Positions 8,366 through 13,168 of a stretch of DNA of 64,000 bases are shown piece by piece. The notes under the pieces were generated by a model that worked only from the letters and a program-made list of their open reading frames with translations, made no database searches and was not told the origin of the DNA. The stretch is from Escherichia coli. GTDB taxonomy: Bacteria; Pseudomonadota; Gammaproteobacteria; Enterobacterales; Enterobacteriaceae. Positions within the stretch are counted from its first letter, which is position 1. Every line of letters starts with the position of its first letter. The stretch is from the NCBI RefSeq assembly GCF_044324785.1, contig NZ_CP172127.1. The stretch is one strand, 5' to 3'. The position numbers were made by a program, and so were the translations under genes.

Positions 8366-9520
8366 TTACTTCAGACCGGCAGCATCGCGCAGCAGCTGCG
8401 CTTTGTCGGTTTTTTCCCACGGGAAATGTTCGCGACCAAAGTGACCGTATGCTGCGGTTTCTTTGTAGATCGGGTGCAGCAGATCCAGCATCTGAATCAG
8501 ACCGTATGGACGCAGGTCAAAGAACTCACGTACCAGCAGAGTCAGTTGTTCAGAAGGCACTTTCTCGGTACCGAAAGTTTCCACCATGATAGAGGTCGGT
8601 TCAGCCACGCCGATTGCGTAGGAAACCTGAATTTCACAACGATCGGCCAGGCCAGCAGCAACGATGTTTTTCGCGACATAACGTGCTGCGTACGCTGCGG
8701 AACGGTCCACTTTTGATGGATCTTTACCAGAGAATGCACCACCACCGTGACGTGCCATGCCGCCGTAGGTATCAACGATAATTTTACGACCAGTCAGACC
8801 GCAGTCACCCATCGGGCCACCGATAACAAAACGACCGGTCGGGTTGATGAAGAATTTGGTGGCAGAAGTCAGCCATTCAGCCGGCAGAATCGGCTTGATG
8901 ATCTCTTCCATTACCGCTTCTTGCAGCGATTTCTGGTCGATTTCTTCAGAGTGCTGAGTGGAAAGCACGACAGCATCGATACCAACGATTTTGCCGTCGT
9001 CATACTGGAAAGTCACCTGGCTTTTCGCGTCCGGGCGCAGCCACGGCAGAGTGCCGTTTTTACGCACTTCAGCCTGACGCTGTACCAGACGGTGTGCATA
9101 GGTGATAGGCGCTGGCATCAGCACGTCGGTTTCATTGGTTGCGTAGCCAAACATCAGACCCTGGTCACCCGCGCCCTGTTCCAGCGGATCGGCACGGTCA
9201 ACGCCCTGGTTGATGTCAGGAGACTGTTTGCCGATAGCGCTCAGAACCGCACAGGAGTTAGCGTCAAAGCCCATGTCGGAATGTACATAGCCAATTTCGC
9301 GAACGGTGTTACGGGTGATCTCTTCGATGTCTACCCAGGCGCTGGTGGTGATTTCGCCGCCAACTAAAACCATGCCGGTTTTTACGTAGGTTTCGCAAGC
9401 AACGCGTGCTTTCGGATCCTGTTCGAGGATCGCGTCTAAAACGGCATCAGAGATTTGGTCAGCAATTTTGTCAGGATGCCCTTCAGAGACGGACTCGGAC
9501 GTAAAAAGGTGTTTTGCCAT
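8366..9520 (-). CDS. metK: S-adenosylmethionine synthetase
   Basis: Start at [25 protein letters not shown] (384 aa). Confidence 0.97.
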
Positions 9521-9575
9521 ATTTAATATCACCTAAAGAGAATTTGGTTAGCTCAAACTGTTGTGTGGATTTTCT

Positions 9576-9827
9576 GTGGTAGCGGATCCTACCACGACTC
9601 TGCAGGTTAAAAACACTGGCAGTCTGAGTGTTAATCGGTATGGATGGATTAACATCTGGATGGCTATTTTAGGTCAGTTCTTCACCCAATTTCCACTTTT
9701 TTTTGAATCGTGTCTCATTCTGTTAAAAACGTGGCTGGAAATTTTTCCTGACAATGCTGGCATTCTGCGTATTTATCTTTTGCAATTTTCTGCCATTGTG
9801 GGGTATAAAACGCGGCGCGCGGCTTAA
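9576..9827 (+). CDS. small hypothetical ORF (83 aa from GTG) in the metK-speA divergent region; possibly the K-12 yqgD annotation
   Basis: Open frame only; K-12 annotates an 83-aa y-gene near here; no conservation evidence available. Confidence 0.2.
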
Positions 9828-10039
9828 ATAAAAAGCACACGACGTTTCTTTCGTGTTGCCACTTCCAGCCGGGTTGAAATCAGAGTTTTGGCTTGTGGGT
9901 TCGTCTTAACAGGCGGCCGTGGAGGTGATACGAAATAATGAACCGTTGTCTGCTGCTTAACCTGTCTCACCGTTCTGGTGAAGATTCGTTCCCCGCACTC
10001 TGCATCTCTGCTTTGCATACCTGCCGATGTTATACCCAT
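9824..10039 (-). CDS. yqgC: small hypothetical protein YqgC
   Basis: 71-aa ORF; length and position match the K-12 yqgC annotation between metK and speA. Confidence 0.4.
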
Positions 10040-10096
10040 CTCGGCGCTTCTCAGGATTCAAGAGCTGGTTACAGTTACTGAGGACTGAACAAGGGC

Positions 10097-10120
10097 GCTC
10101 TTGTAAAAACAAGAGTTTTC
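10097..10120 (+). terminator. terminator-like hairpin upstream of yqgB/speA
   Basis: ctcttg-taaaaa-caagag followed by ttttctcgtggtttc. Confidence 0.4.
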
Positions 10121-10174
10121 TCGTGGTTTCGCCGAACTGTCACACTTACGTTCGGTTATGTGCTTAATAATGTT

Positions 10175-10306
10175 ATGAAAAAGAAACCGGTTGCGCAGTT
10201 GGAGCGTCAGCATTCACTGCTGGAAAATCCATGTGCTTATGGGTTGTTATCGCAGTTCCAGGCTGCGATAGTCGTTAACTGTTTTACACTTAATAAAATA
10301 ATTTGA
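10175..10306 (+). CDS. yqgB: small protein YqgB (43 aa) immediately upstream of speA
   Basis: ATG 10175; translation [43 protein letters not shown]; stop 8 nt before the speA ATG. Confidence 0.65.
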
Positions 10307-10314
10307 GGTTCGCT

Positions 10315-12291
10315 ATGTCTGACGACATGTCTATGGGTTTGCCTTCGTCAGCGGGCGAACACGGTGTACTACGCTCCATGCAGGAGGTTGCAATGAGCTC
10401 CCAGGAAGCCAGCAAGATGCTGCGTACTTACAATATTGCCTGGTGGGGCAATAACTACTATGACGTTAACGAGCTGGGCCACATTAGCGTGTGCCCGGAC
10501 CCGGACGTCCCGGAAGCTCGCGTCGATCTCGCGCAGTTAGTGAAAACTCGTGAAGCACAGGGCCAGCGTCTGCCTGCACTGTTCTGTTTCCCACAGATCC
10601 TGCAGCACCGTTTGCGTTCCATTAACGCCGCGTTCAAACGAGCGCGGGAATCCTACGGCTATAACGGCGATTACTTCCTCGTTTATCCGATCAAAGTTAA
10701 CCAGCACCGCCGCGTGATTGAGTCCCTGATTCATTCGGGCGAACCGCTGGGCCTGGAGGCCGGTTCCAAAGCGGAGTTGATGGCGGTGCTGGCACATGCT
10801 GGCATGACCCGTAGCGTCATCGTCTGCAACGGTTATAAGGACCGCGAATATATCCGCCTGGCATTAATTGGCGAGAAGATGGGCCACAAGGTCTATCTGG
10901 TCATTGAGAAGATGTCAGAAATTGCCATTGTGCTGGATGAAGCAGAACGTCTGAATGTCGTTCCTCGTCTGGGCGTGCGTGCACGTCTGGCTTCGCAGGG
11001 CTCGGGTAAATGGCAGTCCTCTGGCGGGGAAAAATCGAAGTTCGGCCTGGCGGCGACTCAGGTACTGCAACTGGTTGAAACGCTGCGTGAAGCCGGGCGT
11101 CTCGACAGCCTGCAACTGCTGCACTTCCACCTCGGTTCGCAGATGGCGAATATTCGCGATATCGCGACAGGCGTTCGTGAATCCGCGCGTTTCTATGTTG
11201 AGCTGCACAAGCTGGGCGTCAATATTCAGTGCTTCGACGTCGGCGGCGGTCTGGGCGTGGACTATGAAGGCACCCGTTCGCAGTCCGACTGTTCGGTGAA
11301 CTACGGCCTCAATGAATACGCCAACAACATCATCTGGGCGATTGGTGATGCGTGTGAAGAAAATGGTCTGCCGCATCCGACGGTAATCACCGAATCGGGT
11401 CGTGCGGTGACTGCGCATCACACCGTGCTGGTGTCGAATATCATCGGCGTGGAACGTAACGAATACACGGTGCCGACCGCGCCTGCAGAAGACGCACCGC
11501 GCGCCCTGCAAAGCATGTGGGAAACCTGGCAGGAGATGCACGAACCGGGAACTCGCCGTTCTCTGCGTGAATGGTTACACGACAGCCAGATGGATCTGCA
11601 CGATATTCATATCGGCTACTCTTCCGGCACCTTTAGCCTGCAAGAACGCGCATGGGCTGAGCAGCTTTATTTGAGCATGTGCCATGAAGTGCAAAAGCAG
11701 CTGGATCCGCAAAACCGTGCTCATCGTCCGATTATCGACGAGCTGCAGGAACGTATGGCGGACAAAATGTACGTCAACTTCTCGCTGTTCCAGTCGATGC
11801 CGGATGCGTGGGGGATCGACCAGTTGTTCCCGGTTCTGCCGCTGGAAGGGCTGGATCAAGTGCCGGAACGCCGCGCTGTGCTGCTGGATATTACCTGTGA
11901 CTCTGACGGTGCTATTGATCACTATATTGATGGTGATGGTATTGCCACGACAATGCCAATGCCGGAGTACGATCCAGAGAATCCGCCGATGCTCGGTTTC
12001 TTCATGGTCGGCGCATATCAGGAGATCCTCGGCAACATGCACAACCTGTTCGGTGATACCGAAGCGGTTGACGTGTTCGTCTTCCCTGACGGCAGCGTAG
12101 AAGTAGAACTGTCTGACGAAGGCGATACCGTGGCGGATATGCTGCAATATGTACAGCTCGATCCGAAAACGTTGTTAACCCAGTTCCGTGATCAAGTGAA
12201 GAAAACCGATCTTGATGCTGAACTGCAACAACAGTTCCTTGAAGAGTTCGAGGCAGGTTTGTACGGTTATACCTATCTTGAAGATGAATAA
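10315..12291 (+). CDS. speA: biosynthetic arginine decarboxylase
   Basis: Start at [49 protein letters not shown] (658 aa). Confidence 0.96.
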
Positions 12292-12436: not shown

Positions 12437-13168
12437 ATGAAAAAATGGAAAGTACGTAGCGCGTTGATAGCATTAGTCGTGCTGCTGACCGGTTGTTCCA
12501 GTAATGCGCAGTATAATAGCAGTACATCGGGCAATGTCGGCACCGCCTGGGGTGGGGATGTGCACTCATCGGTTCAGGGCGTATCTGCTGAGCGAGCCTG
12601 GCGCGATCCGGCAGAGATGATCGTTATTAGTTATTCGACTACTGTTCCTTCGGGCTACGACCGCGTTTATAGCATTCGTATTAACGAACTGGAATATGCT
12701 ATTCGCGATGGTAATTTTAATTCTCTACCTATTACGCGGGTTTATGATTCATCCAATAATGAACCACGCTATATTGTCCATGCCAGAATCGGAATGAATT
12801 ATCAATTATATATCCGTAATTACAGTCGTAACACCAACTACGAGATCGTTGCTACGGTTGATGGCCTGGATGTGCTGAACGGCAAGCAAGGTTCGCTGAA
12901 TAACAATGGCTATATTGTGAATGCCGGAGATTCGTTAGCGATTAAAGGATTCCGCAAAGATAAACATACCGAAGCGGCTTTTCAGTTCGCCAACGTTGCT
13001 GATTCCTACGCAGCCAATTCGGCGCAAGGCGATGTGCGTAATACCGGGGTAATCGGCTTTGCCGCCTTTGAATTACAAGGCCCGGCGCAAAACGCGATGC
13101 CACCGTGCTCTGGACAAGCCTTTCCGGCAGATAACAATGGCTATGCACCGCCACCGTGCCGGAAATAG
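12437..13168 (+). CDS. predicted lipoprotein of unknown function (243 aa); not recalled at this locus in K-12
   Basis: ORF with SD gagggaa; N-terminus MKKWKVRSALIALVVLLTGCSSN has a signal peptide and lipobox LTG-C; AT-rich upstream region; own terminator downstream. Confidence 0.7.
   Translation: MKKWKVRSALIALVVLLTGCSSNAQYNSSTSGNVGTAWGGDVHSSVQGVSAERAWRDPAEMIVISYSTTVPSGYDRVYSIRINELEYAIRDGNFNSLPITRVYDSSNNEPRYIVHARIGMNYQLYIRNYSRNTNYEIVATVDGLDVLNGKQGSLNNNGYIVNAGDSLAIKGFRKDKHTEAAFQFANVADSYAANSAQGDVRNTGVIGFAAFELQGPAQNAMPPCSGQAFPADNNGYAPPPCRK

Follow-up and report, generated by a model that had tools for sequence, protein, structure and literature searches.

Polyamine genes can be preceded by leaders that carry upstream ORFs (uORFs), and speFL-speF is one such system. 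The leader of speA resembles those of mdtU-mdtJI and speFL-speF: it is long, precedes a polyamine-synthesis gene, carries translated uORFs and undergoes Rho-dependent premature termination. Two further elements proposed below for the speA leader, a helix sequestering a Shine-Dalgarno sequence and a terminator-like hairpin, are comparative predictions. The yqgB-speA arrangement has been listed among candidate uORF regulators (Adams 2021). Antisense pairs in which a new translated small ORF lies opposite an older annotated gene are a second kind of relevant locus, and yqgC-yqgG is one of four such pairs, with nrdB-yoaM, yghE-yqhJ and waaL-yibX (Weaver et al. 2019). The older genes yghE and waaL are also translated, whereas yqgC is not, so that the older yqgC annotation appears to be an artefact.

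A third comparison is offered by yceQ and rne, in which a small y-gene ORF, upstream of an essential gene and divergent from it, contains the promoter of that gene. Deletion of yceQ scores as lethal in the Keio collection because the rne promoter lies within yceQ (Goodall et al. 2018). The yqgD frame resembles yceQ in containing the transcription start sites (TSSs) and core promoter of metK and in being essential in the Keio collection only, as one of 25 genes of that kind (Goodall et al. 2018). It differs from yceQ in spanning a second promoter, that of speA, and in having been filed under "transposon-free region" in the TraDIS analysis, not under "polar insertions" (Goodall et al. 2018).

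We analyzed these frames in a 64,000-nt stretch of an Escherichia coli genome (contig NZ_CP172127.1), referred to here as the window, in which metK (8366..9520, minus strand) and speA (from 10315, plus strand) are divergent with 794 nt between them. RefSeq annotates four small genes in this interval, yqgD, yqgC (in K-12 only), yqgG and yqgB. The original prediction, which did not notice yqgG, had described a 71-aa reverse-strand ORF and an 83-aa forward-strand ORF of unremarkable composition that overlap at their 3' ends inside a region that must also hold the metK promoter. All of this stood: the ORFs are yqgC and yqgD, sharing 4 nt; published maps place the metK TSSs inside the region; and the GC content is 44% for the intergenic region, 43% for yqgD and 49% for yqgC. 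The coordinates and strand of yqgD are exactly as annotated by RefSeq in an identical genome and in K-12, and the K-12 pair is the same locus, with the same position, strand and 4-nt overlap and no difference. The finding is an ordinary one, a rediscovery of two legacy annotations that is largely already explained. YqgC and YqgD of the window are 100% and 98.8% identical to the K-12 proteins, and identity over positions 9400-10400 is 100% with strain AR_0013 and 99% or higher with 5,422 of the 5,425 genomes that match there. Position 9521, where the described region begins, is the base immediately before the metK start codon and no ORF boundary, and the ORF list also gives the yqgD frame from a TTG (9561..9827, plus strand, 88 aa). 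Published K-12 positions were converted as K-12 = 3096226 - window, a relation verified on the metK and speA start codons.

Our reading is that 9521-10039 is very probably a control region shared by metK and speA, without two protein genes. From left to right it would consist of a structured metK 5'UTR, the metK core promoter, a spacer, the speA promoter and the first 223 nt of the speA leader, the last of these comprising a 5' hairpin, a helix that would sequester the yqgG Shine-Dalgarno sequence and then the translated uORF yqgG. On this account yqgD would be a chance open frame running through the metK leader, the two promoters and the spacer between them, and yqgC an antisense shadow of the speA leader and yqgG, and the apparent conservation of both would be conservation of promoters and leaders read in an irrelevant frame. 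Features are collected in Table 1.

Table 1. Features of the metK-speA interval, in window coordinates
Feature	Position	Strand	Description	Basis
yqgD (b2941)	9576..9827	+	83 codons, GTG start	RefSeq annotation
yqgC (b2940)	9824..10039	-	71 codons, ATG start	Annotated in K-12 record only
yqgG	9938..10081	+	47 aa	RefSeq annotation
yqgB	10175..10306	+	43 aa	RefSeq annotation
yqgD/yqgC overlap	9824..9827	both	4 nt, TTAA, forming the TAA stop of each frame	Read from sequence
metK 5'UTR	9521..9658	-	138 nt from major TSS	SMRT-Cappable-seq mapping
Inverted repeat	9630..9653	-	GTTAATC-N10-GATTAAC, +6..+29 of metK mRNA	Alignment
metK core promoter	9666..9695	-	-35 TGGAAA (9695..9690), 18-nt spacer, -10 TAAAAT (9671..9666)	Promoter scan
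Spacer between divergent promoters	9696..9779	.	~85 nt; sequence varies, length conserved	
speA/yqgG promoter	9780..9816	+	-35 TTGCAA (9780-9785), 18-nt spacer, -10 TATAAA (9804-9809), GC-rich discriminator	By eye
speA 5'UTR	9817..10314	+	498 nt; first 223 nt (9817..10039) opposite yqgC	
5'-proximal speA leader hairpin	9835..9859	+	Two pairs with compensatory AU/GC changes	RNAalifold
Leader helix	9860..9927	+	CACUUCCA (9860-9867) paired with UGGAGGUG (9920-9927, yqgG Shine-Dalgarno); two inner helices enclosed	
Terminator-like hairpin and U-run	10097-10116	+	Between yqgG and yqgB	Terminator scan, covariation

Open frames of these lengths are expected in a region of this size. In 5000 dinucleotide-preserving shuffles of the 794-nt metK-speA intergenic region, the longest ORF had a mean of 82 aa and reached at least 83 aa in 42%, and a pair of at least 83 aa and at least 71 aa arose in 21%. 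The lengths of yqgD and yqgC are those expected by chance in 794 nt with this base composition (P about 0.2-0.4). For comparison with other genomes, we assembled orthologous metK-speA spacers from the window and 14 other Enterobacteriaceae loci, namely four Escherichia (two with identical spacers), Salmonella, Citrobacter, two Klebsiella, Raoultella, four Enterobacter and Mangrovibacter, and brought in more distant Enterobacterales for some checks. The loci were gathered by a MetK scan of a genome collection together with exact-protein look-ups of SpeA, YqgD-like and YqgG variants; homologue searches with the 83-aa YqgD and the 43-aa YqgB reached mostly Escherichia. All 15 loci keep the divergent metK/speA order, with spacers of 789-916 nt, and of the near-invariant blocks found across the alignment, none keeps to the boundaries of yqgC or yqgD.

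On the metK side, SMRT-Cappable-seq places the metK TSSs at K-12 3086568 (major) and 3086648 (minor), which map to window positions 9658 and 9578 on the minus strand, both within yqgD. The -10 element ends 7 nt upstream of the TSS at 9658, and the core promoter is conserved across genera. The metK 5'UTR folds better than its shuffles (z = -2.56), and both arms of the inverted repeat near its start are identical in all 15 aligned Enterobacteriaceae. At least the GATTAAC arm recurs in more distant Enterobacterales, and a 20-nt insertion in the loop is tolerated in Enterobacter sp. Bisph1. This repeat encodes the "conserved" SVN..WIN stretch of YqgD. As the helices of the metK 5'UTR are invariant, without covariation, constraint on the RNA and constraint on the DNA are not separable here. 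A MetJ operator near the metK TSS was considered and rejected, the whole window containing no array of three tandem boxes with at least 15/24 matches to AGACGTCT, and from its sequence the block at 9630-9653 is better described as an invariant inverted repeat than as a met-box array.

Between the two promoters, it is length that appears to be maintained. The stretch orthologous to 9702-9827, which includes most of the spacer, measures 123-126 nt in 15 genomes with its sequence diverging freely, and in E. coli 159 nt separate the metK TSS from that of speA. This pattern suggests a spacing constraint between the metK and speA promoters.

On the speA side, the promoter block GGTATAAAACG is near-invariant in 14 genomes, with the TSS immediately downstream at 9817. 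This is where SMRT-Cappable-seq starts both the yqgB and the yqgB-speA-speB units (K-12 3086409), and the same base opens the speA 5'UTR construct of Adams et al. (2021) (primer GCGCGGCTTAAAT..., sequence GCGCGGCTTAAATAAAAAGC). The yqgD stop codon lies 8-10 nt past this TSS, and the TSS map thus has yqgD spanning the metK 5'UTR, the metK core promoter, the spacer and the speA promoter in order. By the same map, with speA starting at 9817, yqgC is wholly antisense to the speA leader. SMRT-Cappable-seq favors long transcripts, and a short yqgD or yqgC RNA could be missed by it; its supplements list no transcription unit that includes b2940 or b2941 and no sense TSS for yqgD. The Cappable-seq, ROSE and INRI-seq supplements give no entries for yqgC or yqgD. 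Further speA-speB units start at window positions 10280, 10281 and 10298 (SMRT-Cappable-seq). These secondary TSSs lie inside the 3' end of yqgB, beside a promoter-like TTAACT-16-AATAAT (10275-10302), so that speA can be transcribed with or without its long leader.

Rho-dependent premature termination has been shown in the speA leader, and a Term-seq 3' end was mapped at K-12 3086295, window 9931, and labelled "antisense yqgC" (Adams et al. 2021). That end falls within the structured start of the leader, 9817-9940. In the RNAalifold analysis of 12 sequences, the inner hairpin at 9898-9918 covaries, and the helix that pairs 9860-9867 with 9920-9927 has 8/8 pairs identical, its arms lying in near-invariant blocks. 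Farther downstream, 13 sequences share the hairpin at 10097-10116, with compensatory changes in its stem. The blocks flanking the hairpin at 10097-10130, ACTGAACAAGGGC and GTTTTCTCGTGGTTTC, are near-invariant. An Rfam scan of 9300-10500 returned nothing at E <= 1. The leader at 9817-9940 may be an uncharacterized translational or Rho-dependent attenuator of polyamine synthesis.

The validated 47-aa uORF of speA, yqgG, is the genuine gene opposite the 5' half of yqgC. Its ATG and strong Shine-Dalgarno sequence GGAGGTGAT are kept in 15/15 genomes, and an in-frame stop before its normal end occurs in 0/15. It matches Pfam PF23505, its pN/pS is 0.13-0.40, and diversity is ordered position 3 > position 1 > position 2 in both the Escherichia and the six-genome sets. 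For codons 28-44 the values by position are 0.100/0.028/0.174, indicating strong purifying selection. In these comparative tests yqgB behaves like yqgG within Escherichia. A more specific and rather doubtful proposal is that the yqgC DNA is the front half of a speA-leader attenuator, predicted to work by a helix that hides the Shine-Dalgarno sequence and by translation of yqgG, whose C-terminal peptide is strongly conserved and which would decide if transcription ends early. If true, an early end would come by Rho or at 10097-10116, ahead of yqgB-speA-speB, and the arrangement would place the operon under polyamine or arginine feedback.

Turning to yqgC itself, ribosome density on the frame is absent with or without initiation inhibitors, and SPA-tagged YqgC was not observed, whereas the antisense YqgG was detected (Weaver et al. 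2019). Among 30 PGAP genomes sampled across the match ranking, none carries a yqgC annotation. In eight genomes (Klebsiella, Raoultella, Enterobacter and Mangrovibacter) the frame is interrupted by an in-frame stop at codons 3-29, and in Salmonella and Citrobacter it is shifted, with a stop at codon 55-56; no intact yqgC frame was found outside Escherichia among the genera examined. Within Escherichia, E. fergusonii has a premature stop at codon 64. The part of yqgC outside the yqgG overlap has a pN/pS of 0.19-0.49 within Escherichia, on very few changes, and the overall value against Salmonella is 1.06. Variable columns fall 4/5/9 by codon position, which is not significant, and the same DNA is constrained as speA leader RNA.

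The conserved part of yqgC can be traced to the other strand. The first 34 codons of yqgC are overlapped by yqgG on the opposite strand, and, judged from the alignment, the conserved N-terminus of yqgC is the complement of the conserved part of yqgG. The Pfam family PF17430 (YqgC-like) matches strongly (E = 2e-39, 133.9 bits against a cut-off of 25), and over residues 1-51 only. As this is the part antisense to yqgG and its Shine-Dalgarno sequence, the family probably models a shadow reading frame. We hold with high confidence that yqgC is no more than a shadow cast by the speA leader and yqgG, a view that is already partly published. Some lists place yqgC among genes with a potential SOS box. 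LexA regulon membership was rejected, the best matches to the CTGT-N8-ACAG core carrying 2 mismatches, and so was SOS induction, log2 changes ranging from -0.37 to 0.34 over a published DNA-damage time course. A terminator scan finds a terminator-like hairpin and T-run on the minus strand at 9856..9837, in the 3' end of yqgC. The site is the speA 5' hairpin followed by GCTTTTTATTT, within the last ~11 codons of yqgC, and a minus-strand RNA ending there would be without the yqgC stop codon.

For yqgD the evidence is comparative and indirect, and it favors, as the most likely reading, a frame open by chance across the metK leader and two promoters. When the frame is located in other genomes by anchoring on the conserved metK promoter/leader block, it runs through in 3/10 non-Escherichia genomes: Salmonella (99 codons), K. 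michiganensis (81 codons) and K. pneumoniae. That of K. pneumoniae is without a usable upstream start codon, which leaves 2/10 with a usable start; the Salmonella and K. michiganensis frames start at about the same place as in E. coli. In the other seven (Citrobacter, Raoultella, four Enterobacter and Mangrovibacter) it stops early, just past the conserved block. Disruptions are also seen within Escherichia, with a W53* nonsense change in one locus (L090), a C-terminal frameshift in E. fergusonii and further frameshifted or truncated YqgD alleles in public protein sets. E. coli and E. albertii keep the frame intact, and Escherichia sp. E4742 has a full-length protein.

What similarity YqgD has outside Escherichia coincides with regulatory DNA. 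Matches by tblastn lie mostly in residues ~8-56, which correspond to the metK promoter/leader block, and the part shared across genera (...SLSVNQYGWINIWxAILG...FPxFF) is the translated metK TSS region, -10 and -35. A YqgD-like block is also present in Pectobacterium, Brenneria, Yersinia and Acerihabitans, the first three of which keep no such ORF. YqgD has no match at E <= 1 in current Pfam-A and NCBIfam; DUF2684, the domain in its K-12 product name, survives only in annotations and has no current Pfam match.

Substitutions in yqgD follow no coding pattern. Diversity at codon positions 1, 2 and 3 is 0.134/0.122/0.114 within Escherichia and 0.233/0.229/0.176 when Salmonella and Citrobacter are included, position 3 being the least variable. 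The pN/pS is 1.06 against E. fergusonii and 1.35 against Salmonella, rising to 3.05 for the N-terminal half in the latter comparison. The one sign of constraint comes from E. albertii, against which it is 0.38 overall (5 synonymous and 6 non-synonymous changes) and, for the C-terminal half, 0.17 (4 synonymous and 2 non-synonymous changes); with 11 substitutions the overall value is not significant (P ~0.1 under neutrality, by hand calculation). In the stretch orthologous to 9702-9827, stops average 1.14 per genome in the yqgD frame versus 0.5 in one antisense frame. Codon usage was rejected as coding evidence: at 0.19 bits/codon yqgD ranks among the highest 4% of shadow ORFs and the lowest 7% of real-gene segments, and the validated yqgG and yqgB score below it, so that the score does not discriminate real genes from shadow ORFs.

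The original prediction had suspected annotation artefacts and had proposed ribosome profiling and conservation and codon-substitution analysis as checks. That suspicion is well supported for yqgC, which is untranslated in the published profiling and broken in every non-Escherichia genome examined. For yqgD it is supported by the comparative evidence, in which the conservation and codon-substitution analyses came out negative, with no periodicity and a pN/pS of about 1 or higher against E. fergusonii and Salmonella. A search of the literature and supplements found no published ribosome-profiling, tagging or mass-spectrometry results on YqgD, and from the pattern of substitutions and broken alleles we infer that the frame is not translated.

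The essentiality of yqgD in the Keio collection can be set beside that of yceQ. The metK TSS and core promoter lie within yqgD, and metK is in the essential-gene table of Goodall et al. (2018; Table S2), so that an explanation of the yceQ/rne type would fit: the "essentiality" of yqgD would be an effect of the essential metK promoter inside the frame. This explanation comes from our analysis and is not stated by Goodall et al.

Several other readings of the locus deserve consideration. It could be argued that yqgD is a young gene restricted to Escherichia, encoding a small hydrophobic protein, possibly of the membrane, with an origin de novo in T-rich promoter DNA and with transcription driven by a weak plus-strand promoter close to where metK starts. 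The intact frames of E. coli and E. albertii, the full-length protein of Escherichia sp. E4742, the low pN/pS against E. albertii and a codon score that is high for a shadow ORF would all accord with such a gene, as would the name, since PGAP still calls the product "protein YqgD". In BW25113 (CP009273.1) the frame carries no annotation. We nevertheless consider a young gene improbable. Codon periodicity is absent, with position 3 the least variable, nonsense and frameshift alleles occur inside Escherichia itself, pN/pS is about 1 against E. fergusonii, and the low E. albertii value comes from the few substitutions noted above. Nor does expression speak for it, as no sense TSS is recorded and no clear Shine-Dalgarno sequence was found upstream of the GTG at 9576, and the weak plus-strand promoter-like match that could drive it (9514-9543) coincides with the metK ribosome-binding site. 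Its RNA shows one isolated elevated time point in the DNA-damage course. It is more improbable still, to the point of being nearly dismissed, that yqgC and yqgD are both translated as a true convergent overlapping gene pair. Both are annotated in K-12, YqgC has a Pfam family and yqgC is listed with a potential SOS box, but YqgC is untranslated and undetected (Weaver et al. 2019), RNA of neither frame shows sustained induction by DNA damage, no good LexA core is present, neither frame is conserved and ORFs of such lengths are expected by chance. For yqgC, this two-gene reading has largely been refuted already.

A different possibility concerns the yqgC strand as RNA, with the frame incidental: a non-coding cis-antisense RNA, or "excludon," could pair with the speA leader and yqgG and so modulate speA. 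The pair yqgG-yqgC is among the divergent excludons of ExcludonFinder, in at least 50% of 58 MG1655 RNA-seq samples, and some RNA from the yqgC strand may exist on the strength of that listing. As the yqgG and yqgC annotations overlap, low coverage of the two strands may suffice for an excludon score. The terminator-like hairpin and T-run at 9856..9837 on the minus strand could end such an RNA, but it is equally explained as the covarying 5' stem-loop of the speA mRNA, the promoter scan gave no minus-strand match upstream of 10039, and SMRT-Cappable-seq lists no such unit. A regulatory antisense RNA seems to us about as unlikely as a young yqgD, and a shared metK/speA control region remains our preferred account.

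These results bear on how the two names are used. We suggest that yqgC (b2940) be treated as a non-gene, that yqgD (b2941) be flagged as doubtful and that its "essential" label in the Keio collection be taken to reflect the metK promoter. Knock-outs, CRISPRi guides and expression calls directed at "yqgC" or "yqgD" report on the control regions of metK and speA. The main biological interest of the locus lies in the conserved, structured speA leader with its yqgG and yqgB uORFs.

Some further variation was seen around this leader and beyond speA. Repeat-like insertions of ~50-125 nt are present in three loci. In Citrobacter sp. FP75 (L004) the insertion lies directly downstream of the speA TSS, aligned to window ~9829, and in two Enterobacter spp. 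(L005 and L072) the insertions lie between yqgB and the speA start, aligned to ~10297, where they lengthen the yqgB frame to at least 60 codons. Between speA and speB, the window has a 243-aa lipoprotein-like ORF (12437-13168, plus strand), annotated as a hypothetical protein. This ORF is also present in two other Escherichia loci (L089 and L090) and absent from those of Salmonella, Klebsiella, Raoultella and Enterobacter, in which speB directly follows speA.
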